Source: Candidatus Nomurabacteria bacterium (GTDB lineage Bacteria > Patescibacteriota > Patescibacteriia > HK-STAS-PATE-3). Taken from it: a stretch of DNA of 64,000 bases. Shown in pieces: positions 830-39,750 of this stretch. Below the pieces are notes generated by a model. That model did not search any database and was not told the origin of the DNA. It worked only from the letters and a program-made list of their open reading frames with translations. Position 1 is the first letter of the stretch. Every line of letters begins with the position of its first letter. A program made the position numbers and the translations under genes. The stretch spans positions 512,001 to 576,000 of the forward strand of contig CP060223.1 of the NCBI GenBank assembly GCA_023898465.1, in the 5' to 3' direction.

Positions 830-1876
830 TTAAATAACTTCCATCACGCCTGTATACATACCCATAGAACATGAATATGTATATCGGCCCGGTTGCGTTG
901 GAGTAAATTGAAAACTTTGTCGGTCAGTGGGACGCAAAAAAGTGTCAATACCAAATTGTCGAAAAGTAAAAGCAACCGCACAAGAATATACGTCATTACT
1001 CTGCAATATCAACTCCACTGGCTTATTCTTTTCAACCGCAAAATATCGGGGCGAGTACCCTTGACCCAACACGTTAATGGTTACTCGCTGCACACCGTTA
1101 GTAAGTACCACTTCATCACTAACAGCCTTTGGTGTGCTTGTGTTCTGAAATTTTGCAATAATTTTTTCATACGTAATTGGTGCATCATACACATTAAGGA
1201 TCCCGTTGAAGCTGATAAGCGACAAGACAATCAAAATAGCAGCGGCAGTTTTTTGAAACCATCCATGCATCGTATCTGAGAGCTTCGCGGTCATGACGCC
1301 AAGTAAGGTAAAAATTGGTGAAGTACCAAGCACAAAGAAAAACATAATAAGGGCTCCAGCTATAGGACTGCCACTAGTAACTGCCACCACTTCCATTGCC
1401 TGAGTAACGCCGCAAGGGATAAAGACGGTCAAGACCCCTAATACTGCGGGGGCAAATAAAGTATCGCTCTTACTTGATTTCTTCACAAAGCGCTGCAGCC
1501 AACGCGGTGGCTGAAATGCTAAGAAGCGAAAGATTGGATGCACGTTTAATAAGTTCATTGCTGTAGCAAACATAAACAACGCTGCAGCAAGTTGAAAAGC
1601 GATACGCACATTTAATCCTATCGCTAACACTGAACCAAGCCAGCCAAGCAAAAAACCAAAGGCGGTGTGTACAATTAATTTCGCTAGTAAAAAAATACCT
1701 ACTGGCCAAATATCTGTTCCGCGGATTCGTGCATCGCTAGATTTTAGTGATGTTTTTCCGTTTTCAGATCGTTCCTTCTGATTAGCTATCACGCCTGCCA
1801 ACAACCCCCCTTGGACAGCTAGGCAGGTTAAGCCACCGGTAGTTAAGCCTGCTAAGAAAAAAACCCAATAATTCAT
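830..1876 (-). CDS. DsbD_2/TauE-like polytopic membrane domain fused to a C-terminal cupredoxin-like domain
   Basis: 348 aa. N-terminal multi-TM region has Cys in TM1 (TCLAVQGG) and TM4 (FIPCGVT), the CcdA/DsbD-like arrangement. C-terminal roughly 100 aa ([12 protein letters not shown]...[17 protein letters not shown]) resembles a cupredoxin fold. The ATG overlaps the copA stop as ATGA. Confidence 0.5.
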
Positions 1877-4104
1877 ATGTGTGATCGAAACGTTTTTAAT
1901 CGTAAGGCATTAAGCACAACTGAAACACTTGAAAAGGCCATTGCAGCGCCTGCCCAAATTGGATTGATAGTAATTCCCCAAATCGGCGCTAATGCTCCCA
2001 TGGCAACGGGTATGAGAAGAACATTATAACCAAAAGCCCAAGCAAGATTTTGCCAAATATTCTTCATAGTTGCTCGAGAAAGCGCAAGAGTCACTGGAAT
2101 TAACCGTAAGTCTGGACGAAGTAACACAACTCCAGCGGTCGCAATAGCAACATCAGTTCCCTGCCCCATTGCAATACTTAGATCCGCCGCTGCCAAGGCA
2201 GGCGCGTCGTTAATTCCATCCCCAATCATTGCGACGCCTTTTTTCTGCTGCTGCAGCTCTTTTATTCGCTGCTCTTTTTCTTGTGGAAGCACCTGTCCGA
2301 TAACTTGCGAAAGTTTAAGCTCACGCTGCACGTGCTGCGCTGCTTCTCTAGTATCACCAGTGAGCATTATGGTCTGTATGCCCTGATGATTTAAGGCGGC
2401 AATTACGCTGGCGGATTCCTCACGTATCGTATCAGCAATACTAAAGGAGACGAGGGCTTCATGATTGTCGGCCACATATACACGAGACATATTCACTGGC
2501 ATGAATTGAGCCTGGTCTGCATCGATTTGGATATTCTCTTGAGCCAACAGTGAGGCACTACCAATATTCATTTGACCGATAGTATCCTTAGCCCGAACTC
2601 CTTTTCCGGGCACATCAATTATTTCAGGCGCTGTTTCTGCGCTAGGTATTCCTTTGTCATTGATATACTGCGCAATAGCTTTTGCTAAAGGATGATTTGA
2701 GCGTTCTTCAATTGTCCGGACACGGCCAAGTAACTCTTGCTGCTCCTGGACGGAAAAAGTACGCATCATTTGTATATCTTGTACACGGGGCTTGCCTTCC
2801 GTTAAGGTGCCAGTTTTATCAAACACAATGGTCTGCACACGTCTCCCCAATTCAAGCGCTTCAGCATTTTTTATAAGTATCCCAAGCTCTGAACCCTTAC
2901 CAATGCCGACCATAATTGAAGTGGGAGTGGCTAAGCCGAGCGCGCAGGGACAAGCAATAATAAGCACACTCACCATGCTTACAAGTGCGTGTGCCCAAAC
3001 TGGATCTGGTCCAAAAAATAACCAAAGTCCAAAAGTGAGCAATGAAAGAGCGATAACAATTGGCACGAAATATGCTGAGATCTTGTCAGCTAAATTCTGT
3101 ACCGGGGGTCGAGATCCTTGCGCTTCTTCAACTAAGCGTACGATTTGTGCCAGCATAGTTTCATCACCCACTCGTCTTGCTTCCATCTCAAAAGCACCGC
3201 TAGTATTCATAGTTGCGCCAATTACCTGGTCTCCTGCCTTTTTCTCTACTGGCAAGCCTTCCCCAGTCACCATGCTTTCGTCTACCGCAGAGGATCCAGA
3301 CACAATATTCCCATCAACAGGAACTTTTTCACCTGGCTTCACTAAAATACGGTCTCCTACACGCACGTCAGTAAGGGGAAGATCCTGCCAAGTTTTTTTT
3401 TGAAATACATGCGCTATTTTTGCCTCTAGCTTCAACAAACGCTTCATTGCTGTAGCTGCCTGACCTTTTGCTCGCAACTCGAGAAATTTACCCAGTAACA
3501 CTAATGTAATTACCGTAGCTGAAGTTTCAAAGTACGCTAGCTGACTAATACCTAATGCCGCTAATTGATTTTCGTAAACTATTGAGAATGCTGAGGAGGC
3601 ATAGGCTACGCTAGTTCCTAAGGCGATAAGCGTATCCATATTGGCCGTGCGATTTTTCAGCGCAGACCAAGCGCTCAGGTAATAGTTTTTTCCAGCCCAA
3701 AACTGTACCGGGGTGGCAAGTATCCACATCAACCATGACTGACGCAGCCAATCAGGCGCTCCTGGCACCATCGCGCCAATAAGCAATAGTACAGTGAGTG
3801 GGAAAGAAACAAACAATCTCTGTCTCAACTGACGCAACTCTTCGACTCGTTCCTTTTCCGTAAGATCGCCGTGATCATGTACGCCTATGTGCGCTTTATA
3901 ACCCAACTTTGCAACGGTTTGCCCTATTTCATACTCTGGAGTTGCATGAGGGTCGAAGCTAACTGCTGCTTGATGATTTCCATAATTTACCGTTGCCTCT
4001 TTTACACCTGGAAGTTTCTTTAGACGACGTTGGATATTTGCCGCACAGCTTGCGCAATGCATGCCAGACACATGAAAATTGATCTGTTGGACATTATTTG
4101 GCAT
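1873..4104 (-). CDS. copA: Copper-translocating P1B-type ATPase
   Basis: HMA motif GMHCASC, CPC transmembrane motif ([12 protein letters not shown]), DKTGTLT phosphorylation site and GDGINDAP hinge. Start placed at the internal ATG (4102-4104, MPNNVQQ...) rather than the 42-codon ORF extension. Confidence 0.9.
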
Positions 4105-4573
4105 ATTTTCCTGGATTTTTTTGAAAAGCCTTTTTACATCCACTCGCGCAAAAATAATATTTCTTCCCCTGATATTGCATGGCCGCGCCGGCCGTACTCG
4201 GAGAGACACGCATGTGACATACAGGGTCATGCACGATTGGCATAAGATCCTTCATTGTCCTACTGAATTCATCAGGTTTTTTATCGCCCTGTTGAACAAC
4301 AATAATGTCGCGAATAAGTTGACTCGCCTTAGCAAAATTCGGATGAGCTAAATGGTATCGAAGACGCTTTCCCAGCCGATGATAACTTACCGCTCCAGCA
4401 TCACGAAGTATTTTAAGATGCTGACTGAGATTTGCTTGTGGCAAACCAAGCATGTCTTGCATTTCCTCAACCGTTGCTGGGCCTTCTTTTAGTAAATGTA
4501 AAACCTCCAAACGGCGCGGATGTGCAAGCGCTTTTAAAAGCTTGGCGTGGAGTTTAAAAACTTGTTCATACAT
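4094..4573 (-). CDS. ArsR/SmtB-family metalloregulator with C-terminal YHS/TRASH metal-binding domain
   Basis: HTH region [11 protein letters not shown]...[13 protein letters not shown]-terminus DPVCHMRV...[14 protein letters not shown] matches the YHS/TRASH pattern. ATG at 4571-4573. Overlaps the copA start. Confidence 0.75.
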
Positions 4574-9798: not shown

Positions 9799-9827
9799 TT
9801 GACATTTTTTCATATCTAGTCTAGTAT
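9799..9827 (+). promoter_or_regulatory. Sigma70-like promoter TTGACA-N17-TAGTAT
   Basis: TTGACA at 9799-9804, 17-nt spacer, TAGTAT at 9822-9827. The same -35/-10 pair recurs upstream of csrA, which supports it being a genuine promoter consensus in this genome. Confidence 0.4.
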
Positions 9828-9835
9828 ATGCACTC

Positions 9836-10191
9836 GATGTTCATTAGAAATGAGAGAGAGGCGGGATGAGATAGGTGTCCCCCCAGACACCTCGCTACCT
9901 TCATACAGCGGTAGTTGCATCATCCCACTGCCCGAAGCGGCTCCCCACCCTTGTTACTACTTGTACTGGCTTCATCCCTAAGGATCCCCCGCCAGTCTGG
10001 TGCTGACATGTTCGGCGTCATATCCTTATGGTCTATTGGCTGCAAAGCTGATCACCTTTTGTGATGATGACTCACCGATGCTTCGGCTCAGATGCCTCTC
10101 TCTCCACCTACGCCTGCGCACCTGAGCACTCCCCCAGGCTCACTGCGCATGTGCCCCCGTCGTGTCGTTGTACCGACGGGGGTGCTTTTTT
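9836..10191 (+). ncRNA. Candidate structured non-coding RNA (unidentified class), about 355 nt
   Basis: GC-rich (roughly 55-60%) stretch with no ORF of 60 codons or more, lying between two minus-strand genes. It has its own plus-strand promoter upstream and a strong intrinsic terminator at its 3' end. Contains several local hairpins, for example GGTGTC-CCCCCCA-GACACC and a GC-UUCG-GC tetraloop. Confidence 0.35.
10154..10191 (+). terminator. Rho-independent terminator
   Basis: 9-bp GC-rich stem CCCCCGTCG/CGACGGGGG (10154-10162 / 10174-10182) with an 11-nt loop, then TGC TTTTTT. It is oriented for plus-strand transcripts only. Confidence 0.6.
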
Positions 10192-10232
10192 ATAAAAAGA
10201 AATCCCCAGGCCGATTGGTCTGGGGATGAGAA

Positions 10233-10679
10233 CTAGAACTGTTGTGCTGAACGCATCCGATGAAGCGTGCTACACACCAGTCCAATACCAGAGCGACGCT
10301 CTACACAGAACTGATACACCCGTTGCGCCGCCATGAGCTTTTCATAGAGCGCCTGACCATGCTTAGTGGCTAGTTCGTTTCGCATCTCCCGGTCTAGACC
10401 TTGGTAATACGAACCAAGCAGCAGATAGCGCACTAGAAGCCACCCCAGTAACCCGGAGCTGAGCAGCATCGCTGTTAAAGCACCGGGCAGAGTCAGATAC
10501 CCGAGCAAATCCTCCAGTCTTGCCCAGTAGTACACTGCAACAAGCTCAAATAGCAGAAACGCTAGCGTGGCTATAGTTGACCCTATCCGGATAAACAGGC
10601 GCCACCTTTTCACTCTCTCGCACAACTCTAGAATCTCTTCTTCTTGAACACTGAGTTGCGCGTAGAGGAAATTCGACAT
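10233..10679 (-). CDS. Hypothetical membrane protein
   Basis: ATG at 10677-10679 with a strong Shine-Dalgarno (GAGGGAGGTG) upstream. Two or three predicted TM helices. Lies directly downstream of the heliorhodopsin gene. Confidence 0.5.
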   Translation of the reverse strand: MSNFLYAQLSVQEEEILELCERVKRWRLFIRIGSTIATLAFLLFELVAVYYWARLEDLLGYLTLPGALTAMLLSSGLLGWLLVRYLLLGSYYQGLDREMRNELATKHGQALYEKLMAAQRVYQFCVERRSGIGLVCSTLHRMRSAQQF

Positions 10680-10745: not shown

Positions 10746-11528
10746 TTAAGGCCGGAGAGTACCGGAAAACATTTGCCAGGCTAGAGCTGATTTCGCCACC
10801 AGGGACAAAATCATATAGGCCTTTTCACCGTAGAGATAGTCCTGCCATTTCCCTATCTTCTTATACTGCAGGACCATGTTAATCGCGAAGATGTTAAAGG
10901 TGACAAAGATGGTGGCCACAATGAAATAAACAAAGGTAGGAATCTCCACTCCGGTCGACTGTACCGCGCCAATGAAGAAAGCAACAATGACCAGCCAGGG
11001 AATTAAGCCAGCCAAAACTCCTATCCAGTACGAAAGCCAATTCGTATGCTTGGTCGTCTGATTATGTACTTCCATCATCAAGCCCATGAGATTCATAATC
11101 GCATTCAAGGCAAACAGCGAAATGAGTAGCCAAAGATCGTACACACCACAAAGCATGGCAATAACTACAATCATAACTGACGAGGATAAGGCATACTCAG
11201 CCCAACGCAGCTTGTTGATGCCCTTTTTCAAATTCTCCTCATACCATTCCCGCAAAGGTCCGGCTAGAAGGAAATGCGCAAAAGCAGAAAGGAAGAGAAA
11301 GACCGCTACGGTGGGGCCTAAGCGTAAGTCAAACAAATGCTCAGGAAGTGGAGCTACACCAAAAACTGGATTATTTGGATCGATTTTCAGGTATGAAGTA
11401 ACAACTGGTAAAGATGAATTATTGCTTATCAAAACCATAATGACGCCTTGCACGAAGTGAAGGGCGGCCATTGACCAATTCCAGACTTGTAGTTTTTTTA
11501 ACTGCTCTTTTTGACTACGCATTTTCAT
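10746..11528 (-). CDS. Heliorhodopsin
   Basis: 260 aa, 7 TM. Close motif-level match (from memory) to heliorhodopsin 48C12: LQVWNWSMAALHFVQ vs LQNFNRIAGVFHLLQ; RWAEYALSSSVMIVVIAMLCG vs RWVEYSLSSSVMIVLIAQICG; GEKAYMILSLVAKSALAWQMFSGTL vs GERAYIVLSLVAKSALAWQIFSGTL. This includes the TM7 Schiff-base Lys (SLVAKS), the counterion Glu (RWAEY) and both conserved His. Confidence 0.85.
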   Translation of the reverse strand: MKMRSQKEQLKKLQVWNWSMAALHFVQGVIMVLISNNSSLPVVTSYLKIDPNNPVFGVAPLPEHLFDLRLGPTVAVFLFLSAFAHFLLAGPLREWYEENLKKGINKLRWAEYALSSSVMIVVIAMLCGVYDLWLLISLFALNAIMNLMGLMMEVHNQTTKHTNWLSYWIGVLAGLIPWLVIVAFFIGAVQSTGVEIPTFVYFIVATIFVTFNIFAINMVLQYKKIGKWQDYLYGEKAYMILSLVAKSALAWQMFSGTLRP

Positions 11529-11546
11529 ACCCCCCCCTTTTTTTCT

Positions 11547-11885
11547 TTACTTAAACCGTTTGCCTAGCCACGCGCCAATCCAAACGGCAAAAAGAATAAT
11601 ACCAAAAAGAATAAGTTGCCACAACCATTGTTCGCTTTCACGCCATAGCATTAGTAGCACGAATAGTGCAGCTGGTACTAGCCAAATACCCGTCCACGCT
11701 TTCCAAAGTGATGGAAACGCAAAAGTAAAGCCAGCGCTAAAAAGCAAGTACACTGCAAAAATTATTGCTCCAGCAACTATGTAATCATTTATCCCGGCGC
11801 TATCAGAAAAAAGCACATTCAGGACGAGAAAAAATCCAAAGAGGCAGCTAAGTAGACAGGCAAGGATAATCAAAAACGTACGCAT
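11547..11885 (-). CDS. Small polytopic membrane protein, hypothetical; immediately upstream of and co-directional with heliorhodopsin
   Basis: 112 aa with three or four hydrophobic helices. ATG at 11883-11885. An 18-nt gap separates it from the heliorhodopsin start. Confidence 0.5.
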   Translation of the reverse strand: MRTFLIILACLLSCLFGFFLVLNVLFSDSAGINDYIVAGAIIFAVYLLFSAGFTFAFPSLWKAWTGIWLVPAALFVLLMLWRESEQWLWQLILFGIILFAVWIGAWLGKRFK

Positions 11886-11925
11886 ATACTAAAGTATATC
11901 ACTTGCCTCGGTCTTTGCGTAGTAC

Positions 11926-13614
11926 TTACTTAGGCTCTGCTACTGGATCTGTAAGCGACGCTCCTGCTGCTGCCATCTCTTCGTGTTCAGCGTCTCTAGG
12001 TAAGAAGAAGGATGCAATGAGGGTGAGTAAGGTAAAAGCAGCTGCGTAATTCATCACATCTTTGTTTGAATCAACGATTGCCTCGTACTGTAGACGGGAT
12101 AACTGCGGCAGCAGTTCAGCTGGGATGTTAGAGGTATCACCCGGTTCAGCGTTACCGAAAGTACGAGCCTGCTCCTCAATCGCTTCAATCAACTGAGGCT
12201 TCATTGCCTCAGGGATATTTACCAAGTCCTGGACGCCTGTTTCAACATGAGAGAGTAAGGAGCTTAAGAGAATCGTCCCAATAATAGCCGTACCAAGTGC
12301 CTGGCCCACAGTACGGAAGGTGGTATTTAAACCTGACGCTTGGCCAGAAAACTGCAGTGGAATAGTGGCTAAAGTAAGATTGGTAATCTGGGACATGATT
12401 AATCCAAAACCAAAGCCATACAAGGCAAGACCGGGAATCAAATCCCATTGACTCATATCAACTGAGAACTCGCTCTTGAGCACAAAAGCACTGATGAAAG
12501 AGATGAGAATGCCGAGCTGAATAATGTAGCGAGCGTGGAAGCGACCAGTGAAACGTGAGAAAAGCCCAGCGGCGATAAACAAGGCGATCGACATCGGCAT
12601 CAATGCTAGGCCCGTATCAAAGGCGCTTAAACCCAAAATAGCCTGTAGTAAAACTGGAATGGTAAAGAAGATGCCAGATTGAGCTAATACGAGAATGGTC
12701 AATGTCACAATGCCAGTGGAAAAAGCTCGATTCTGCAATATCACTGGATTCATAAGGGGCACTAAACCATCTGCACGTTGTGAACGATGTAAGCGTCGCT
12801 GCCAAAAACCAAAAAAGATGAGTATGAGCACGCCAAGGGCTACTGCTATTGGGGTAATGGAAAGGTCAAAAGGATGTATAGCAATATCGCCCATAGAATA
12901 AATCTCTTTTGCCTTCCACCAACCGTACTGACTTGCTTCCAAGAGGCCAAACACCACCGAACCAAGACCAAACGCTGACAGGATGGCGCCTAAATAATCA
13001 AGCTTCTCGCGTGAAGCATCATGCGTGCGTGGATCACGAATATAGCGAGCCAGAGCGAGAATAACTATGACAATAATCACCTCAGTAGCAAAAGCCCAGC
13101 GCCAGCTAAAATGCGTAGTCATATAACCGCCGAATAGTGGTCCAAGTGCTGCAGTCGCGCCAGCGGTGCCGCCCCAGATGCCGAAGGCAATGCGCAAATC
13201 CCTGCCGCGGTAATTCGCCAAAATAAGCGAAACAGTAGCTGGCATCATCAATGCCGCTCCAATGCCCTCAATAATTGACCAGCCTAATATCAACACATTT
13301 ACGTTCGGACTGAGTGCGGCAGTGATAGTGCCGGTCGCATACACCACTACGCCGATAAGGAAAAGCTTTTTGCGGCCATACATATCACCTATTCTGCCAC
13401 CAGTGAGCATAAAGGCTGCCATAACAAGAGAATAGATGGTGATGGCCCACTGCACATTTCGCAAGCTTGTACCGAGATCATGCACAACGTTTCGAATAGA
13501 AACATTAAGCATGGTGGTATCAAAGATGATAATCACCAAAGCAAGGCTAAGTACAACTACTAGGCCCCACTTCTGGAACCAAGCGCGAATAGGATGTGAA
13601 GTATTTGTTTCCAT
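11926..13614 (-). CDS. MFS transporter, DHA2 (EmrB/QacA-like, 14-TM) family
   Basis: Typical MFS motif (GRIGDMYGRKKLFLIGV) and a 14-TM organisation. Start taken at the ATG at 13612-13614 (METNTSHP...) rather than the TTG of the longer ORF. Confidence 0.85.
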   Translation of the reverse strand: METNTSHPIRAWFQKWGLVVVLSLALVIIIFDTTMLNVSIRNVVHDLGTSLRNVQWAITIYSLVMAAFMLTGGRIGDMYGRKKLFLIGVVVYATGTITAALSPNVNVLILGWSIIEGIGAALMMPATVSLILANYRGRDLRIAFGIWGGTAGATAALGPLFGGYMTTHFSWRWAFATEVIIVIVILALARYIRDPRTHDASREKLDYLGAILSAFGLGSVVFGLLEASQYGWWKAKEIYSMGDIAIHPFDLSITPIAVALGVLILIFFGFWQRRLHRSQRADGLVPLMNPVILQNRAFSTGIVTLTILVLAQSGIFFTIPVLLQAILGLSAFDTGLALMPMSIALFIAAGLFSRFTGRFHARYIIQLGILISFISAFVLKSEFSVDMSQWDLIPGLALYGFGFGLIMSQITNLTLATIPLQFSGQASGLNTTFRTVGQALGTAIIGTILLSSLLSHVETGVQDLVNIPEAMKPQLIEAIEEQARTFGNAEPGDTSNIPAELLPQLSRLQYEAIVDSNKDVMNYAAAFTLLTLIASFFLPRDAEHEEMAAAGASLTDPVAEPK

Positions 13615-13715
13615 AATTGCAAAAAAATGAATGGCCGTACTCACCCGGAGCACTCCCGGATAATAACGTAACGTCAAGTATACTCGCCGCTCAATAACTT
13701 GTCGAGACTACGGCA

Positions 13716-14219
13716 TCATATCTTCCGAGCGTCATAGGCCCAGTGTAGCAGCGCCTGACGTTGCCGACGGCGACAAGCCATATCACGAGGCGCGCAATAC
13801 TTCTTGATTTGACCAACGTGACGACGAATAGCTTTCCAGCGCTTTATTTGACGCTCATCCTCCCTGGGAATACGACGGCCTGAATAATAGCGACAGTACC
13901 ATTGAAACCAACCTCGTGGATCCTCTGGATAAATCCAGCCTTTGCGCTGCCACTCTGCTAAAGATTGACTAGCGTCGACAGCAAAGAAATTGAGGTGGGG
14001 ATTATGGGTGGAGGATAATCGTGCGCCGCGAAACCATGAAGCGGGAAATTCTTTTTGACAATCATTGAGGTACTTACCCCCAAAAACACCTAGTCGCAGC
14101 ATCTGCGCAGGACTTAATTCAGGCGTAAACTCTGGAGCAAAGTTTCGGCCAGGCGCTTCTGTCCGGTAGTATGTGTAGGCCTGCTGAAAGCTATCGTTTA
14201 CTTTAACTTTTTTCTTCAT
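13716..14219 (-). CDS. Conserved hypothetical protein
   Basis: 168 aa from the ATG at 14217-14219. Trp/Arg-rich conserved-looking segments (PRGWFQWYCRYYSGRRIPREDERQIKRW). No confident family assignment. Confidence 0.45.
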   Translation of the reverse strand: MKKKVKVNDSFQQAYTYYRTEAPGRNFAPEFTPELSPAQMLRLGVFGGKYLNDCQKEFPASWFRGARLSSTHNPHLNFFAVDASQSLAEWQRKGWIYPEDPRGWFQWYCRYYSGRRIPREDERQIKRWKAIRRHVGQIKKYCAPRDMACRRRQRQALLHWAYDARKI

Positions 14220-14520
14220 AATCCCCTGTTGAAGCTTGCCGCACCCAGCGCTGCTCAATATAGAGCACTCGCCACCACCATCGCCCTAAGAAATACCCAC
14301 CAATCGCTCCAAGTAGTAACAAGCCAATTTGAATGTATGGTGGAAGCGCACATCCCCAGGTCCAATGTATAACCTGTCCATTTTTCTCAGCCCAGCTTAA
14401 ATACCACTGCTCAATTCCTAAATGTAACAGCAAACTTAACAGCACGCCGAACACAGTAGCGCTAATGAGATAAAGTGCATGTTTGAACGGGGTTGCTTTA
14501 AGTGGTCCGCGATGAAACAT
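14203..14520 (-). CDS. Hypothetical small membrane protein
   Basis: ATG at 14518-14520. Two hydrophobic helices. It lies 2 nt after the stop of the giant surface protein gene. Confidence 0.4.
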   Translation of the reverse strand: MFHRGPLKATPFKHALYLISATVFGVLLSLLLHLGIEQWYLSWAEKNGQVIHWTWGCALPPYIQIGLLLLGAIGGYFLGRWWWRVLYIEQRWVRQASTGDYEEKS

Positions 14521-14522
14521 AT

Positions 14523-17500
14523 TTAGAAAAGATTTAACCAACCAAAGAGGTCTTGCACTGATCCTAGGATTACCTGCACAACTGTTTGTTCTTGCTGTGG
14601 AGTAAGAATAGTCAGAGGCTCAGACACCGAGGTCTGTCCACTGGAATCCGTGCTCTCCACCTTGAACTGATACACCGAACCTGGCTCAAAACTTGTCAAA
14701 ACGACAACGTGCCGTTTCGTATAGTTTGTATCAAGTGGCGTGGCTTCGGTAATTGCTTCATCAGCACTGGCAACACCCTGTCGATAGTACACTCGACTAG
14801 TGGCTGGCTCATTTGTTAGCCAGCTGATGATGGTTTGGACTTTAGTATCACGGCCCGGGGAAAGGGCTGAGTCAGTTTGAATCTGCGAGATAAGCGGAGG
14901 CGCATTCTCATCGCCGGTCACAAAGGAGTCAAGCGTCTTGGAAACCGTATTGCCATCTGCATCAACACTTACCAACTCAATTGCGTAAGTCACTCCAGAC
15001 TCAAAACTATCTACAGTCACCTGATGAATAATGGTTTGCGTATCATCTCGAACACTGCTTAACTCATCGACCGCTTTGATGTTATTGCGATAAGGTATCA
15101 CCCGTACAGTGGCATCTGCATCACGAGTGGTGGTCCAGCGGAATACCGCTTCCTCGCTTGATATTTTTTCGACGGCATAATTTTGAATATCAAAAACCTG
15201 CGGATCAGTAGTGAAACTAAAGTCTGCACTTTGCGTTGTCTGGCTAATCTTTGTTCGACTACGCACTTGGTAATGATAGGTTGTATCAGGCTGTAAGTTG
15301 TAAACCGTAACTGAATGGGTCGTGCTATAGGTTTCCGCATCACCCACCACCTGAGTATACTGTTGTGCCAGAGCAAAGTCAGCATCTGAAGCGTAAGCTA
15401 CCAGGGCATTAGAGTCTTTATCAGTTCTCCATTGGATAGTGACTGAAGTTGGACCAACATCCACGCGAGGCTCTCCACTAATAAGCGGAGTAGGAATTAT
15501 TTTTGATAACTCCTCGATGAGTTGATACTGCTCTTCTAAACTTAGCTCTAAAATATCAATGCTAACATTGCCATAGAGATCATTCAGTAGATCAAGATTT
15601 TCTTCAAGGATATTCTTAATCTCATCAGGATTGTTTCTATCGATTGGTGCAGTGCCAGACGTAGTGAATGTTTTATCGCCGGTAATCGACGTGTTGCCGC
15701 TTGCATCAACGGAAATAACTCGATAATGATAAGTAGACCCACTGTTTAATTGTTGCAGAGTAAGGCTATGACTGGTGGCATAAGTCCAGTCACCATAAAT
15801 AGTTCCGTAAACTGTGGTAAGGCCAAATTGAATAAAGCTATTCGCTTCCTCACTTGTAGTCCAACGCACAGTGGCAGCGCTATCGCTAATGTTTACCACC
15901 TCGATGCCGGTTATGCTTGGATTTGTCTCATCCTTACTACCATCAATAGCATCTTGTTCACGTTGCTCTACATCTGATTCCTCAGACAGCATTTCTAAAG
16001 TGCTAAAGGATTTTTCTGTACTCGTTGTGCTATTACCTGAAGCATCAACTGACGAAACAGTGTAATAGTATGTCGTCTTAGGGCTGAGATTACTTAAGGT
16101 AACTAAATGGGTTAGGTTGAGACTTTCGTCTAAGCTCGTTGTAACCGTATAATTTCCCGAGCTTGTCCCATAACGCAATTGAGATGTTGCTCGCTCGTTA
16201 CTTAGCCAGGTAACTACTGCTCGAGTGTCAATGACCGGATCGGCCTGTATATTTGATAAGACTGGTGGCACTGTATCACTAGTCGTAACAAAGGAGTAAT
16301 ATTCACCACCGTTGTTATCAAAAGCTACGCCTGAGGTTACATAGTAGTAATACAGGGTACCGTTTGTCAGTCCTGATAACTTCACTAAATGATTCATCGT
16401 TGGTGGAGTATCCAGACCAACCTCAATGGCATCACTCATATCTGAATTCACTGAATAGAAGACGTGTGAATCAGACTCTACATCAGTTAACCAGCTTATA
16501 CTCGCTTCAGTATTACTCACCTCTTGCGTACTTACATTAGAAATTGCTGGACCACTTAAGGTTGTTACCGTATATCCATCACCTCCGTCAGAGTCAGTTG
16601 CCGAGTTCCCACCCGGATCCTCTGAACGAACTCTGAAATAGTACGTTGTCGAGGGATCGAGTCCGGTAAGTATGACTCGGTGAACACCAACACCTGCTTC
16701 ATTATCCATCAGAGTTGCAACACCGATAGTCGTACCAAAATCAGCTGGGGTATCTGAATATCCAATAGTAGAATCAGAGAGCTCATCTGTCTCCCAGGTA
16801 ATAGTGACCGTCTGAGTACCTATCTGACTGGTTGCTACATTTGAAATAGTTGGAGGCGTACTATCAGTACCTCCTTGTCCGTTGGCAGACTCTGAGACAA
16901 CCGCCGAGTAGTAAGAAAAATTTCCATCGCTATCTTCGCTTGATATCTTATACCAATAGCTTGTATCTGCTGTAACACTTTGATCGAGATAATAGTTAAT
17001 TGCTCTATCGCTTATGTGGCTAATCGTACTATAGCTCGTGCCGTCTGTTGAACGATACACCGTGTATTCGCTAAAGCCTGGGTCGGGCAGTGCTACTGCC
17101 TTCCAAGAAATAAAGAGTTGATAGGCATCAGCTTCTACATTACTAATATCACGAATAATCACTGTTGTTGGTGTTTCTGGTGTTACCGCTGATGCACTAC
17201 TGCTGGTATTTTTGTACGCATCACGGAAACGGACATAGACTGTATCTGGATCAGTAACCAAGGAAATAGTTGAGGAAGAGGCATAGCTTACCCACGTCGC
17301 GCCAACAAAGTCACTCCGCAAAGATACTTGCATTTCAAGGCTGCTATCATCAGAGCCGGAGAGATCGAGAGAAGCGGGGTCAGTACGTGCGTCCACCACA
17401 ATTGCCGGACTACCGAGGACTGGGTCTTTTACATCAAGAGTAAAGGCGCTTGTTTCATCGCTGGCTGTATTATTTGCTAATTCCCCATCATCAATAGTGA

Positions 17501-19943
17501 CTCTAATTAAGGTAGTGGTGCTATAGGTCCCATCGATTTGGGCTTTTGCGTTCCAGCTTGCACTATATTCAGTGTAATTAGTTTCATCGATGTCTTTAGG
17601 ATCGGTTGCCCCGGATGATAGCCCTGTGGTCACGTTAAACCAATCAAGGCCATTATTTAACGAATATTCAAAACTCGGGGTCACCTGTCCTGAGCCAGAG
17701 CTGCCATCTGGGTCACGAACTGAGTAAGTGATAAGCACGCTACCATCACTGCTTTGCTGGGTAGCTGTTGGTGCGCCCTCAAACTCAGGCGGTGCATTTA
17801 CCACATACACCATAGTTGCATCATACAGTGTTGGCGCCGCATAACCGTTTGAAGACTCTAGCCATACCTTATACTGCATCCACTGATCATTCGTACTATC
17901 GGTATGAGTGCTATTCACCGTCTCTCCGCCACTTGGATCAGTATAATAATCCCCTGTGCCGCTAGGACCAAGCCAGCTTGACCAAGTACCAGGAGATCCT
18001 GAGCTATCTGGAGCGGTCCGAATCTGAAATTTGATTTCAGTACCACTCGGTAGATTTTCTGTCCAGCGCATACCCCCCAGCGCATTTAATGCATCGGTGC
18101 TATCAAAAGCAGATGAGGTCAGTGTTTGTGATGATGGGTATTGTTGATAACCGATGCTAATGTCTTCAAAGTGCGGCGAAGCACTAGTATCACTCGTCGA
18201 CATACTCACTCGATATTGAATGTATTGCTCACCATCCGTGACGCAAGCGTCAGAACTAATATCATTCCCGCTCGTTAAATTACCGCATCCGGACCAATCA
18301 GGTGCTCCACTCATGCCTGAATCATTTGAGGTACGAGCCTGAACAGTTAAAGTGGTGCTTCCTGGAACGGTAGCATTCCAACTTAAGGTATCAAAAACAG
18401 TGTTTCCGTTTGTATTAAGTGCCGCTGAGGTGAAAGTGCCCGGTGTAAGATAGGTTGAAGGAATATTAATGGCTAATCCGCTTGCACCATCAGCCATATA
18501 GCTAGTGGTGCCTGATTGCAACACATGTTTTCCGAGCGCGGTAAGTGCGGTGCTGCTCACTTCTGATGGAGAGGTTGGATTGCTCACATCAAGCACTTTT
18601 AAGCTTGCGTCATCAATAATGTACAAGTCTGTGCCTACCGCCTCTACTGAACGCACATCAGTCAAACCTGTACTATAAGCCCCTATGCGAACCGGGACAG
18701 ATGGATTACTAATATCAATAATAGTGACACCAACCGAGGAGTCTGCGGTATATGCGTAGCTACCTACTATAGCTACATCATATCCTTCATCAAAGGCTTC
18801 AAAATCATACGAATATCCTCGTACACCGCTAATAGAACCCGGGGTTCCAATATTGTATATGTTTAAACTCGCAGCCTCTCCGTAATCATCGTACCCAACC
18901 CCATATAAGTAATCACCATCAGCAACCAGGCGATACGGTCTTGCTTGATATGAAACGTTTGACGCACTGAGACTTGGGTTTACCGGATCCGCCAAAGACA
19001 ACACATAAATGCGCATCACACGACAAAAACCTGAACAACCTCCTACTGCAAAACCGGCATACAAATATGATCCACGAAGGTATACGCTGTACACCTCTCC
19101 CGTGCTTGTATATTGCCCTACTAAGCTCGGCGCATTTTTGTTGCTAATATCCACTACACGAACATCACCGGTATAGTCAGCAAGATACGCATAGTTGCCT
19201 GAAACGGTAACGTCTCGCGCGTCGTTTGTGTCGACACTACCAAGGGGCTGAGGTGATAAAGGATTCGAAATATCAAAAATTTTCAAACCATCAACGCCAT
19301 CGGCAATATAGGCATAATTACCGTCGACAAAAACTCCTTTTGCGTCAGTGGTGTCGGAATAGGCAGTGCCACCACTTGATTGGGCCAACTCAACATAGGC
19401 CCCACTTCCCGATCCCGTGACTTGAGTGCTACTCGTGGTACCTGTACCAAAATCAGCATCACTCGTTTGCACGAGAGACTGCGACGTGGTAGTTAAGCTT
19501 AGTTCCGTGCCAATGTTAAGGTTTGCATCAGCTGCTGAGTACTCATTCCAACCTGTCTGATCACCTGGATGCTGAGCAGTATTTGCAGTTTGACCACCGC
19601 TCCAGTCTGTCTGCACCCAATAATAAGTGGCCGCTCGAGAGGAACCAATAGTGAGAGCCCAAAATGTCACGCTAATGAGTAAAACAGACGAAATAATTGC
19701 TCCTGCGTAACGTCGAGAACTTTTAAAAGGCTTTATTACCTTTTGCGCTACCTTTTTATTACGTTTTAAGGAAATGGCAAGTACCCATCCAAAATATAAT
19801 GGGATAAACGCGGTATAAGGACGCTGCTTCTTGCGTTTCGCGCGAAGAAGCGTTGTTTTTTTCTGTAAGCTGGCTGATAAAGAAAATATTCCGAAACCAG
19901 CTCTTTTTGGGGGGCTTTTTTTCGCCGACCTTTTTTTGGTCAC
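14523..19943 (-). CDS. Giant (1806 aa) cell-surface protein with LVIVD beta-propeller repeats and multiple Ig/FN3-like beta-sandwich repeats
   Basis: N-terminal basic region plus a TM anchor (AGAIISSVLLISVTFWALTIG). LVIVD-repeat signature (GNYAYIADGVDGLKIFDISNPLSPQPLGS ... VSGNYAYLADYTGDVRVVDISN). A long Ser/Thr-rich region with repeated roughly 90-aa beta-sandwich-like units (YTVYRSTDG..., TTYYFRVRSED..., TTYHYQVRS...). GTG start at 19943. Confidence 0.8.
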   Translation of the reverse strand: MTKKRSAKKSPPKRAGFGIFSLSASLQKKTTLLRAKRKKQRPYTAFIPLYFGWVLAISLKRNKKVAQKVIKPFKSSRRYAGAIISSVLLISVTFWALTIGSSRAATYYWVQTDWSGGQTANTAQHPGDQTGWNEYSAADANLNIGTELSLTTTSQSLVQTSDADFGTGTTSSTQVTGSGSGAYVELAQSSGGTAYSDTTDAKGVFVDGNYAYIADGVDGLKIFDISNPLSPQPLGSVDTNDARDVTVSGNYAYLADYTGDVRVVDISNKNAPSLVGQYTSTGEVYSVYLRGSYLYAGFAVGGCSGFCRVMRIYVLSLADPVNPSLSASNVSYQARPYRLVADGDYLYGVGYDDYGEAASLNIYNIGTPGSISGVRGYSYDFEAFDEGYDVAIVGSYAYTADSSVGVTIIDISNPSVPVRIGAYSTGLTDVRSVEAVGTDLYIIDDASLKVLDVSNPTSPSEVSSTALTALGKHVLQSGTTSYMADGASGLAINIPSTYLTPGTFTSAALNTNGNTVFDTLSWNATVPGSTTLTVQARTSNDSGMSGAPDWSGCGNLTSGNDISSDACVTDGEQYIQYRVSMSTSDTSASPHFEDISIGYQQYPSSQTLTSSAFDSTDALNALGGMRWTENLPSGTEIKFQIRTAPDSSGSPGTWSSWLGPSGTGDYYTDPSGGETVNSTHTDSTNDQWMQYKVWLESSNGYAAPTLYDATMVYVVNAPPEFEGAPTATQQSSDGSVLITYSVRDPDGSSGSGQVTPSFEYSLNNGLDWFNVTTGLSSGATDPKDIDETNYTEYSASWNAKAQIDGTYSTTTLIRVTIDDGELANNTASDETSAFTLDVKDPVLGSPAIVVDARTDPASLDLSGSDDSSLEMQVSLRSDFVGATWVSYASSSTISLVTDPDTVYVRFRDAYKNTSSSASAVTPETPTTVIIRDISNVEADAYQLFISWKAVALPDPGFSEYTVYRSTDGTSYSTISHISDRAINYYLDQSVTADTSYWYKISSEDSDGNFSYYSAVVSESANGQGGTDSTPPTISNVATSQIGTQTVTITWETDELSDSTIGYSDTPADFGTTIGVATLMDNEAGVGVHRVILTGLDPSTTYYFRVRSEDPGGNSATDSDGGDGYTVTTLSGPAISNVSTQEVSNTEASISWLTDVESDSHVFYSVNSDMSDAIEVGLDTPPTMNHLVKLSGLTNGTLYYYYVTSGVAFDNNGGEYYSFVTTSDTVPPVLSNIQADPVIDTRAVVTWLSNERATSQLRYGTSSGNYTVTTSLDESLNLTHLVTLSNLSPKTTYYYTVSSVDASGNSTTSTEKSFSTLEMLSEESDVEQREQDAIDGSKDETNPSITGIEVVNISDSAATVRWTTSEEANSFIQFGLTTVYGTIYGDWTYATSHSLTLQQLNSGSTYHYRVISVDASGNTSITGDKTFTTSGTAPIDRNNPDEIKNILEENLDLLNDLYGNVSIDILELSLEEQYQLIEELSKIIPTPLISGEPRVDVGPTSVTIQWRTDKDSNALVAYASDADFALAQQYTQVVGDAETYSTTHSVTVYNLQPDTTYHYQVRSRTKISQTTQSADFSFTTDPQVFDIQNYAVEKISSEEAVFRWTTTRDADATVRVIPYRNNIKAVDELSSVRDDTQTIIHQVTVDSFESGVTYAIELVSVDADGNTVSKTLDSFVTGDENAPPLISQIQTDSALSPGRDTKVQTIISWLTNEPATSRVYYRQGVASADEAITEATPLDTNYTKRHVVVLTSFEPGSVYQFKVESTDSSGQTSVSEPLTILTPQQEQTVVQVILGSVQDLFGWLNLF

Positions 19944-37177: not shown

Positions 37178-38089
37178 TTAACGAAAGCGTCGCGCTCGCC
37201 AATTATGCCACTCAACCAATAACGTGCTGGCAATGAAAATTGAGGAGTAAGTTCCCACGATAATACCCGCAATCAGCGCTATCACAAACATACGAATTGA
37301 CTCTCCTCCCAGTACCGCCAGAGCAACTAATACAAACAATGTCGTCATCGAGGTATTAATAGAGCGCGACATGGTCTCATTAATACTCCGGTTAGCGATT
37401 TCTTCAAAAGGCTCATTATGATAACGCTGGATACCCTCACGAATACGATCAAAAACAACAATGGTATCGTGCACTGAGAATCCTAGCACCGTAAGTAAAG
37501 CTGTTACAAAAAGTGAATCAACCTCTGTGCCAAATATCTGACCAAAGAGCACAAAGAGACCTACGATAATAGAAATATCATGAATCAATGCAACAATCGC
37601 GCCAACGCCAAATACCCAACTGGGCACCGGTCCGCCACGAGAAATCTTACGGAAGGCCCAAGTGATATACGCGATGATACCTATGAGAACTAAAGCAATG
37701 GCTGAATACGCTTTCTTGCGCAACTCTTGACCAATACTCGGTCCAATCGCAGTAAATGAATCTTCACTCACCTGCTCTTCTTGTAAAGCGCTTAAGGCAT
37801 CTAGGACTGATTGGCGCTCGTCATTGCTTAAGGCGCGTGTTTTTAGGATGAGGCTTTTTTCGTTAGAAGGAACTGCTTGATAAGAACCCAGGTCTAGAGG
37901 ATTCAATGCGTCTTGTATCGTCGAAAGTTCTGGACGAAGTTCTGGGAAGCTTATCTCCAATCGAGAACCGCCAGTGAAATCAATACCAGGCTTCAAGCCC
38001 CAAATCAAAGCACCGACAATAGAGGCCACAACAAGTATCGCGGAAATGATAGTAAAATATTTTCGCTTTTGGATAATCTTTAGCGTCAT
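37178..38089 (-). CDS. secF: Protein translocase subunit SecF
   Basis: SecF-type N-terminus (IIQKRKYFTIISAILVVASIVG...GIDFTGG) and a 6-TM SecDF C-domain. Its ATG at 38087-38089 overlaps the secD TGA (ATGA). Confidence 0.85.
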   Translation of the reverse strand: MTLKIIQKRKYFTIISAILVVASIVGALIWGLKPGIDFTGGSRLEISFPELRPELSTIQDALNPLDLGSYQAVPSNEKSLILKTRALSNDERQSVLDALSALQEEQVSEDSFTAIGPSIGQELRKKAYSAIALVLIGIIAYITWAFRKISRGGPVPSWVFGVGAIVALIHDISIIVGLFVLFGQIFGTEVDSLFVTALLTVLGFSVHDTIVVFDRIREGIQRYHNEPFEEIANRSINETMSRSINTSMTTLFVLVALAVLGGESIRMFVIALIAGIIVGTYSSIFIASTLLVEWHNWRARRFR

Positions 38090-39750
38090 ACTTGTTCCTT
38101 CTTCCGTACTCCATACAGCCAGGCCACACTCACCCATCGTTGAGTGAGACGTAAGAATGTGCGCGTAACTACAATGGCTGAAAACATACTTACTAAAATA
38201 CCAATCGCTAAGGTAATCGCGAATCCTTTAATGATACTTGTACCAAACCAGGCCAAGATAAAAGTGGTAATTAAACTTGAAATGTTTGAATCGCGAATAG
38301 ACAACCAAGCGCGTCGGAAACCCTCTTCAATCGCTTGATTAAGTGGTCGACCTTCACGCAACTCTTCTTTCATGCGTTCAAAAATAAGCACGTTTGCGTC
38401 TACTGCCATTCCGATGGAAAGAATAAATCCAGCAATTCCAGCTAGAGTCAAAGTCACTGGCCAGAGAATAAAGATGGCAAAAACTACGGCGGAGTATACC
38501 CCTAAAGCCAAAACTGAGATAAGGCCAGGCAAGCGATAATAGAGAATCATAAAGAGCGCAACTAAGCCGAGCCCAATTATGCCAGCAACAAAACTAGACT
38601 GCACTGAACGCTCACCAAGGGTTGGTCCTACATTCTGTTGAGAAACAAGCGTAATTGGTACTGGCAGTGCACCAGCATTTAAATTACGAGCTAAGTCTCG
38701 CGCTTCTTGCAAGGTAAAATCACCTGAGATAACCGCTTCTCCACTCGTGATAGCCTGCTGAACTGTTGGTAAGCTTAATGGGAAGCCATCTAAATAAATA
38801 GCCACCACCTTGCCAACATTGCGCTCAGTAATTTCTTTAAAAAGCTGTGTACCCTCGCTATTGAAATTCAAACTAATCTCTGGAGTATTGGTAGTTTGAT
38901 CAAACACGACTGAAGCTCGTTCCAAATCCTTACCCGATAGCCCAGTTGCCACAAAATCGGTTGAGGGTTCAGTTGACTGCAGTATAAAAAGAATATGACT
39001 ACCTTGAACTTCTCGCACATCTTGCCCATCTTGATTCGCTGTACGCTCGTCGGTCTTCTTAATAATATGCAGACCGAATTGCGATTCAACCAGCTCCGGA
39101 TACACCTGCCCGACCGCTAAATCACCGAAGAGAACGTCATCGAATTCTTGCACGAAAGTGCCTTGTTGCGCAAAACCGAGATCGCCCCCATTATCTTTAC
39201 TACCCGGATCTTCGGAATAGAGTTGGGCCAATTGAGCAAAATCAGCGTCAGGTTGAAGCGCTTGTGCTAATACGTCTTGTGCTTTTTTTCGCACTTCTTC
39301 GTTTTGCGCCTCTATGGCTGCTGGATCCTCTGGTGTGGTCTCAATCTGTTCACGAAATTCTAAGGTTGGAGTTTGACCAATCTGCGCGATTGCCTGGTTC
39401 ACGTCAGTGACACCTGGTAATTCAATCGAGACTCGCCATTGATCGCCAGCCTTTTGCGTTTGGACAACTGGCTCGGATACACCAAAGGCATTCACTCGAC
39501 GCTCAATAACATCGCGAACACCTTCTACAGCGTCTTGCGCCTCAGCTGGAGCTACTTGCGATAGATCAGCGTCATAGAGCAATGACACGCCGCCTTGCAA
39601 ATCCAAACCCAGCTGAACAGGTAAATCAATAGTCCAGTCTACTGGCCCTACGTGAATCCGGATTGGTTTTTGATAGTCAATGGTACCAGCTAGCAGGGTG
39701 AGCAATAGAATCCCGGCAAAACTGAGCCAAACTTTCTTCCGTACGGTCAT
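38086..39750 (-). CDS. secD: Protein translocase subunit SecD
   Basis: GLDLQGG motif, a periplasmic P1 domain and a C-terminal 6-TM domain. 554 aa. Confidence 0.9.
   Translation of the reverse strand: MTVRKKVWLSFAGILLLTLLAGTIDYQKPIRIHVGPVDWTIDLPVQLGLDLQGGVSLLYDADLSQVAPAEAQDAVEGVRDVIERRVNAFGVSEPVVQTQKAGDQWRVSIELPGVTDVNQAIAQIGQTPTLEFREQIETTPEDPAAIEAQNEEVRKKAQDVLAQALQPDADFAQLAQLYSEDPGSKDNGGDLGFAQQGTFVQEFDDVLFGDLAVGQVYPELVESQFGLHIIKKTDERTANQDGQDVREVQGSHILFILQSTEPSTDFVATGLSGKDLERASVVFDQTTNTPEISLNFNSEGTQLFKEITERNVGKVVAIYLDGFPLSLPTVQQAITSGEAVISGDFTLQEARDLARNLNAGALPVPITLVSQQNVGPTLGERSVQSSFVAGIIGLGLVALFMILYYRLPGLISVLALGVYSAVVFAIFILWPVTLTLAGIAGFILSIGMAVDANVLIFERMKEELREGRPLNQAIEEGFRRAWLSIRDSNISSLITTFILAWFGTSIIKGFAITLAIGILVSMFSAIVVTRTFLRLTQRWVSVAWLYGVRKKEQV

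Follow-up and report, generated by a model that had tools for sequence, protein, structure and literature searches.

The results described here reveal that the window, by which we mean the whole 64-kb stretch of DNA analyzed, carries an ordinary heliorhodopsin (HeR) of the Patescibacteria (CPR), and that the DHA2-family MFS transporter gene and the 112-aa membrane protein gene preceding it very probably represent a species-specific indel rather than functional partners of HeR. The function of HeR is open, and conserved gene partners are therefore valuable clues. The present locus does not offer the functional clue hoped for, because its MFS and 112-aa neighbors appear to be an accident of one species; the comparison points instead to a small, recurrent two-transmembrane (2-TM) neighbor as a possible HeR partner.

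On the evidence of its profile matches and aligned residues, the 260-aa product of the gene at positions 10746–11528 (minus strand), whose open reading frame includes 'RWAEYALSSSVMIV' and 'SLVAKSALAWQMF', is a genuine and ordinary full-length heliorhodopsin with an intact retinal site (K246, E111, and the pair His24/His85). It matches Pfam PF18761 over profile positions 1–242 of 242 (E=2.1e-98; 329 bits, cut-off 26.7) and NCBIfam NF038020 over positions 1–244 of 244 (340.9 bits, cut-off 100), and its closest solved structure is TaHeR (PDB 6is6, E=8.9e-79), bearing out the assignment made in the first-pass annotation. The Schiff-base lysine in TM7, already recognized there, lies in S242-L-V-A-K246, aligned to S234...K238 of TaHeR (the SxxxK motif); H24 and H85 are aligned to TaHeR H23 and H82, and E111, the TM3 counterion, to the sole position that differs between the chains 6is6 (E) and 7clj (D). 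The loss of either the lysine or the counterion had been named as evidence against the assignment, and both are intact. The Glu counterion is E107 in 48C12 and E108 in TaHeR, and HeRs also have the conserved His pair. The N-terminal 14 residues include five Lys/Arg and the C-terminal tail only one, a distribution that, considering the sequence only, is in keeping with the positive-inside rule and the TaHeR alignment and fits the inverted topology (N-in, cytoplasmic N-terminus). The SxxxK motif serves as a HeR criterion (PMC9166423), and Glu107 has been described as the HeR counterion (PMC9726877, PMC10434121). As a minor point, gene callers favor the ATG at 11522, giving 258 aa, with better spacing to a G-run ribosome-binding site. 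All three proteins are already deposited in GenBank (USN54032–34, 'Ca. Nomurabacteria'), HeR as USN54032.1 'heliorhodopsin HeR', and the gene is thus already known.

The host is recorded in GenBank as 'Candidatus Nomurabacteria bacterium' (Patescibacteria) with a contig of 1,082,586 bp, in agreement with the reduced-genome bacterium suspected earlier. The 38 window ORFs scanned, among them every other ORF of 220 aa or more (30 in all), gave no match to a Pfam family for carotenoid or retinal biosynthesis, and the earlier remark that blh/crt genes are not visible holds within the 64-kb window on this basis. HeRs of CPR bacteria have been catalogued, with SLVAK as the commonest motif (Chiriac et al. 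2022, PMC9166423). Since blh is missing from the CPR genomes studied to date (PMC9296517) and was not found in the window, retinal would be taken up from outside. Such uptake has been proposed previously, and TaHeR, whose host lacks retinal synthesis, binds external retinal rapidly (PMC9296517). Scavenging of retinal by the present host is plausible, the idea being already published for CPR bacteria (PMC9296517), and the locus, one more HeR in a CPR genome of ~1 Mb with retinal-synthesis genes absent from the 64-kb window, fits this published model.

The layout given in the first-pass annotation (260-aa, 112-aa, and MFS reading frames, co-directional, with an 18-nt gap) was found exactly as described. 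The transporter (11926–13614, minus strand; 562 aa from ATG; USN54034.1) matches TIGR00711 (DHA2/EmrB) over model positions 3–485 of 485 with 237.3 bits, just over the cut-off of 230.2, and MFS_1 with E=1.4e-46; a crude Kyte-Doolittle scan gives 13 TM peaks, compared with the 14 segments of the DHA2 class. It is followed after 40 nt by the gene for the 112-aa protein, termed small112 (11547–11885, minus strand; USN54033.1, hypothetical), a 4-TM protein with four hydrophobic segments whose family is rare and shares the motif GFF[LI]VFNxxF[ST]D, and then, after 18 nt, by HeR. Downstream of HeR lies the gene for a 148-aa 2-TM hypothetical protein (10233–10679, minus strand), which is species-specific and absent from the closest relative (locus L081). 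A sigma-70-like promoter match, TCGACA-17-TATACT (13677–13705, minus strand; a consensus match only), sits in the 101-nt gap between a 167-aa gene and the MFS gene. At the other end, a terminator-like hairpin read from the sequence, CCCCAGACC-AATC-GGCCTGGGG followed by a T-tract (10192–10225, minus strand), lies 8 nt past the stop of the 148-aa gene; it contains one mismatch and was hence missed by the automatic terminator scan. Neither inspection of the sequence nor the scan gave any terminator-like hairpin between the MFS gene and this position. The MFS, small112, HeR, and 148-aa genes are therefore probably co-transcribed, the hairpin being the likely end of the transcription unit. A candidate structured RNA at ~9834–10191 (plus strand) was seen in passing; its nhmmer matches are in the same species only, no further sigma-adjacent loci were found in the contigs looked up, and neither Rfam nor tRNA scanning of the window gave a hit.

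The MFS and small112 genes accompany HeR in one species only. Searches with the MFS protein (phmmer) and a small112-family profile gave no match in any other HeR locus (L001–L089), tblastn found neither gene in L100–L103, and a homologue of one or the other lay near HeR in 0 of the 89 other HeR loci. Both genes are missing even from all 11 loci whose HeRs are 74–85% identical to that of the window (L001, L002, L081, L082, L085, L086, L087, L089, L100, L102, and L103), and the arrangement is kept only in the same-species contigs L083 and L084 (HeR 100% identical). This species also occurs in SRR12358675/6. Relatives of small112 are scarce, a word-indexed search returning only the protein itself and exhaustive HMMER nine weak matches (E from 5e-6 to 8e-4); neither HeR nor any homologue of the window MFS is encoded in the 10 small112-family loci, whose neighboring genes vary (among them one for an AadA_C-domain protein, one for a methyltransferase, and one common to three GC-rich loci). 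The closest relative, L081 (HeR 85% identical), which has neither MFS nor small112, shows the order 2-TM gene, 167-aa gene, HeR (3-nt gap), ECF sigma factor, and DUF5667 protein. Because HeR there directly follows the counterpart of the 167-aa gene that precedes MFS in the window, we read MFS plus small112 as a ~2.2-kb species-specific indel separating HeR from the genes found beside it in the nearest relative; its polarity would be either a gain in the window species or a loss in L081. A mobile-element signature was looked for and not found: no direct or inverted repeats exceeding the chance level flank the two genes, and their GC and GC3 are host-like, leaving a recent foreign origin unsupported. 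The ECF sigma/DUF5667 pair downstream of HeR was discarded as a general signaling link, being conserved only in L081.

The operon proposed in the first-pass annotation is thus supported in its physical arrangement, with co-directional genes, short gaps, a promoter-like site, and no terminator-like hairpin until past the 148-aa gene, but not in the functional linkage it implied: absence of the linkage from other genomes had been named as counting against it, and the pairing is shared by none of the 89 HeR or 10 small112 loci. Accordingly, a light-regulated efflux module, in which HeR would contact the DHA2 transporter in the membrane, possibly with the 112-aa protein as adaptor, and light would alter the transport rate, appears very unlikely to us. 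The exporter, the small membrane protein, and HeR are co-oriented with gaps of 40 and 18 nt, the only promoter-like site is upstream of MFS, no terminator-like hairpin precedes that at 10225–10192, and there is a precedent in OcHeR–OmrDE, where the transporter is likewise upstream of helR (PMC11109279). However, the pairing is limited to one species, and co-direction is weak evidence for linkage, because nearly all window genes are on the minus strand. Published surveys of HeR neighbors also lack MFS (PMC11109279, PMC8612252), which is not among the ten recurrent neighbor groups of 448 HeRs (PMC11109279). The functional operon is therefore unsupported, the MFS and 112-aa neighbors occurring beside HeR in a single species.

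Another explanation is that the true partners of HeR are its conserved neighbors, the 2-TM protein serving HeR as a partner in the membrane or as a transducer-like subunit and the slot between the two genes holding exchangeable effectors; we regard this as unlikely. The 2-TM gene (up112b, 14203–14541, minus strand; C-terminal motif GGFxLGRxWWRxVYIExRW) is the most recurrent HeR neighbor in non-Saccharibacteria CPR loci, as assigned by HeR similarity or record title, being co-oriented with HeR and less than 3 kb away in 9 of 17 (a raw count; the window, L002, L029, L038, L050, L081, L082, L100, and L103), and it is directly beside HeR in L100 and L101. The proximity is not simple block synteny, because the HeRs of seven of these loci (the window, L081, L082, L029, L038, L002, and L050) share only 52–85% identity and the genes farther out are not the same; several of the 2-TM loci are, however, phylogenetically close. 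The slot is occupied by the 167-aa protein (window and L081), GNAT acetyltransferases (L029 and L050), Bro-N (L038), or DUF4342 (L103). The 167-aa soluble protein (up180, 13716–14219, minus strand), of a very large, ~70%-conserved, uncharacterized family, abuts HeR in three CPR lineages, represented by L081, L011 (Saccharibacteria), and L061 (WWE3), but this widespread family is not HeR-specific, because it is abundant in HeR-free diderm phyla. Furthermore, the 2-TM protein (105–112 aa) has no Pfam or NCBIfam domain, no signaling domain, and no family annotation, and in the window the 2.2-kb indel separates both genes from HeR. A role of the 2-TM neighbor as a transducer of the SRII–HtrII type was rejected, as it has no HAMP or methyl-accepting signaling domain. 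In a more specific and still less probable form, the HeR of non-Saccharibacteria CPR would work with a dedicated 2-TM protein, with exchangeable effectors in the slot, expanded here by the DHA2 exporter and the 4-TM protein. If this were true, the 2-TM protein would be a first conserved candidate for a membrane partner of HeR, and the exporter would be one output among several modulated by light.

Returning to the preferred explanation, an ordinary CPR heliorhodopsin next to a species-specific indel, we assume by analogy to the characterized HeRs (TaHeR, 48C12, and HeRs regulating glutamine synthetase, photolyase, or an ABC exporter) that the window HeR would bind all-trans retinal, pump no ions, and work through protein–protein contacts as a light sensor or regulator with a slow cycle. 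Its co-transcription with MFS may most simply be an accident of the position of an efflux cassette and would not constitute evidence for a light-controlled transporter.

The locus is worth comparing with several known systems. The window MFS resembles the EmrB/QacA-type DHA2 drug:H+ antiporters (TIGR00711) in matching the model over its full length of 485 positions, with a score slightly above the cut-off, but has an extra C-terminal extension of ~75 aa, and no EmrA-like partner turned up in its annotated neighborhood. In Ornithinimicrobium cerasi, the operon that encodes OcHeR also encodes, upstream of it, the ABC exporter OmrDE, which OcHeR up-regulates (Cho et al. 2024, PMC11109279). Both loci have a drug-type exporter upstream of HeR in the same orientation, apparently under one promoter; however, OmrDE is a heterodimeric ABC exporter encoded directly upstream of helR, whereas the window has a DHA2 MFS transporter with the 112-aa 4-TM gene in between. 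In addition, the OcHeR–OmrDE arrangement is found repeatedly across a group of genomes, and its interaction and light modulation were measured, whereas that of the window is unique to one species. TaHeR (Thermoplasmatales archaeon SG8-52-1, PDB 6is6/7u55) is ~52% identical to the window HeR (131 identical residues in 253 aligned columns) and shares with it the Schiff-base lysine, the Glu counterion, the His pair, and the equivalents of S112/S234, E150, and Q213. The window HeR differs in its host, a CPR bacterium instead of an archaeon, in five extra residues in the TM5–TM6 region, present as two small insertions, and, at the positions checked, in the substitutions T139N, A113S, C168V, and F172L (TaHeR numbering). 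A further comparison is with the CPR HeRs (PMC9166423) and the GenBank 'heliorhodopsin HeR' proteins of Ca. Kerfeldbacteria, the latter being the nearest named relatives (75–76% identity): they have the same family, SLVAK motif, and kind of host as the window HeR, from which they differ in nothing substantive, only in the local gene neighborhood.

All tests agree that the 260-aa protein encoded at 10746-11528 of the minus strand (ORF list; GenBank USN54032.1) is a heliorhodopsin (HeR), bearing out the first-pass annotation: it covers the whole of the Pfam profile PF18761 (E=2.1e-98), scores 340.9 bits against the NCBIfam equivalog 'heliorhodopsin HeR' (cut-off 100), and has TaHeR as its best solved relative (E=8.9e-79). 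The chromophore site is intact, with residues H24, H85, E111, S115, E153, Q221, S242, and the retained K246 aligned to H23, H82, E108, S112, E150, Q213, S234, and K238 in TaHeR numbering; the E111 column is the sole difference between 6is6 and 7clj, Asp replacing Glu in the latter. The nearest named HeRs are those of Ca. Kerfeldbacteria (75-76% identity), and the GenBank entry itself reads 'MAG: heliorhodopsin HeR [Candidatus Nomurabacteria bacterium]'.

The HeR gene is preceded on the same strand by a 112-aa ORF with four hydrophobic segments (11547-11885; USN54033.1, hypothetical, H6760_02580) and an MFS transporter ORF (first ATG at 13614, end at 11926; USN54034.1) that passes the curated DHA2/EmrB threshold (237.3 bits vs 230.2). 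The gaps are 40 nt from the MFS to the 112-aa gene and 18 nt from there to HeR, the ORFs being exactly those noted before, and all three genes sit on a 1,082,586-bp GenBank contig from an organism of the Patescibacteria group (candidate phyla radiation, CPR). Almost all window genes lie on the minus strand, and co-direction alone therefore says little. Inside the 101-nt gap 5′ of the MFS gene there is a sigma-70-like match, TCGACA-17-TATACT (13705-13677, minus strand), and a hairpin with a T-tract behind it (10225-10192, minus strand) sits 8 nt past the stop of a 148-aa gene downstream of HeR, while no terminator-like hairpin was found in the intergenic stretches between the MFS, 112-aa, and HeR genes. 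From this promoter-like match and hairpin, a transcription unit comprising the MFS, 112-aa, HeR, and 148-aa genes is likely.

The physical layout thus allows the operon proposed earlier, but the linkage of the MFS and 112-aa genes to HeR is not conserved. The comparison covered 80 HeR loci from species-representative genomes and 9 additional, distinct loci that surround the closest HeRs from metagenomes; none of these 89 other loci matched, and the arrangement is confined to one species, being present only on two contigs of the window's own species (L083 and L084) with 100% identical HeRs. By tblastn and jackhmmer, with phmmer for the MFS and a family profile for the 112-aa protein, no homologue of either was found in any other HeR locus; both genes are missing even from eleven loci with 74-85% identical HeRs. 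The closest relative (L081, HeR 85% identical) has the order 2-TM gene, 167-aa gene, HeR (3-nt gap), ECF sigma, and DUF5667, which is the window order minus the MFS and 112-aa genes; the 148-aa gene was likewise undetected there. Conversely, the rare family of the 112-aa protein, recognisable by the motif GFF[LI]VFNxxF[ST]D, is encoded at ten loci in hosts of 31-70% GC, and in the available flanks of these loci neither an HeR nor a homologue of the window MFS was found (0/10). Since the segment of ~2.2 kb has no flanking repeats and a host-like composition, it can be called, from sequence comparison, only a species-specific indel; that it is an insertion in the window species is an argument from parsimony only.

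A light-modulated DHA2 efflux module formed by HeR and the MFS transporter, for which OcHeR-OmrDE offers a precedent, is accordingly hard to credit, as comparative support is absent among the HeR loci compared; nor is MFS listed among the ten recurrent neighbour groups of 448 HeRs (PMC11109279) or in another survey, where the neighbours are redox and two-component genes (PMC8612252). The exporter cassette would rather be co-transcribed with HeR through position, not function. Another rival reading, likewise less favoured, pairs HeR with a conserved 2-TM protein of an unannotated family (14203-14541, minus strand; C-terminal motif GGFxLGRxWWRxVYIExRW, alignment A4), a candidate partner whose recurrence near HeR is suggestive. 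In 9 of 17 CPR loci judged by record title or HeR similarity to be non-Saccharibacterial, its gene shares the strand of HeR and is no more than 3 kb away (the window itself; L029, 5177-5494; L038, 4514-4807; L050, 5148-5396; L081, 429-719; L082, 8778-9095; L002, 3017-3304; L100, 1421-1684; L103, 858-1154). Among seven such loci the HeRs share just 52-85% identity, and the genes farther out on the flanks are not the same. HeR directly adjoins the 2-TM gene in L100 and L101; elsewhere usually one variable gene intervenes, encoding the 167-aa protein, either of two different GNATs, Bro-N, or DUF4342.

The gene of the 167-aa protein (13716-14219, minus strand) is a second recurrent neighbour, located like the 2-TM gene just beyond the 10746-13614 interval of the first-pass annotation; it adjoins HeR in L081, L011 (Saccharibacteria), and L061 (WWE3). 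Pfam, NCBIfam, PHROG, and PDB sequence searches gave no match, and its very large family comprises at least 8000 clusters, all named 'hypothetical', whose members in Patescibacteria, Proteobacteria, and Gemmatimonadota are ~70% identical. The family cannot be specific to HeR, because it is common in HeR-free diderms. Both the 2-TM and 167-aa neighbours occur in L002 (CAYGGC010000007.1), which, like L001 (CAYNGY010000003.1), is titled 'uncultured Gammaproteobacteria bacterium' and has an HeR 75% identical to that of the window; this label is probably wrong, because HeRs are reported as confined to monoderms (10.1101/2025.11.27.691015). Directly upstream of the 2-TM gene lies an 1806-aa ORF (14523-19943, minus strand); its product has a hydrophobic segment at the N-terminus besides a long repetitive Ser/Thr-rich sequence and is probably a cell-surface protein.

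On the plus strand, between the 148-aa and ECF sigma genes and antisense to its surroundings, lies a candidate structured RNA gene of ~360 nt (9799-10191), with an equivalent at ~2120-2520 on the minus strand of L081. It has a sigma-70-like promoter match, TTGACA-17-TAGTAT (9799-9827), whose hexamers are kept in L081, a core of ~255 nt (9852-10105) whose closing helix is GAGAGAGAGG/CCUCUCUCUC, and a strong G+C-rich terminator with a T6 run (10152-10191). The folding z-score of the core is -5.2 on the plus strand vs -2.7 on the opposite strand, and -7.4 on the equivalent strand of L081; Rfam, tRNA, and tmRNA searches gave no match, and covariation is thin because only two species were compared. 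Elsewhere, SecD (38086-39750, minus strand) carries a PpiC-type parvulin rotamase domain at residues ~144-235, between its SecD_1st and P1-head Pfam matches. A copper P-type ATPase and a DsbD_2-cupredoxin protein are encoded ~6.5 kb downstream of HeR (830-4230, minus strand); in L086 (1202-4849), which has a 74% identical HeR, an ArsR/YHS regulator gene precedes this pair, and the pair starts ~220 nt downstream of HeR. This looks like remnant synteny and not functional evidence.

The best-supported reading is a canonical retinal-binding HeR that relies on scavenged retinal and serves either for slow photosensing or as a regulatory rhodopsin; the protein would be non-pumping, and retinal would be taken up from outside. 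As the first-pass annotation had stated, retinal-biosynthesis genes are lacking in the 64-kb window, carotenoid- or retinal-synthesis domains being found in 0/38 scanned ORFs, among them every other ORF of 220 aa or longer (30 in all). Most of what the first-pass annotation raised is in the literature. Among 1326 CPR genomes, all but 17 of 115 rhodopsins were inferred to be HeRs, with SLVAK among the commonest motifs (PMC9166423), and both a lack of blh in rhodopsin-bearing CPR bacteria and their dependence on external retinal have been proposed and partly tested, in a study noting that TaHeR binds retinal quickly via a lateral opening (PMC9296517). The protein, the family it belongs to, the presence of HeRs in CPR bacteria, and the idea of retinal scavenging are already known; the sole new element is the MFS/112-aa adjacency, limited to one species.
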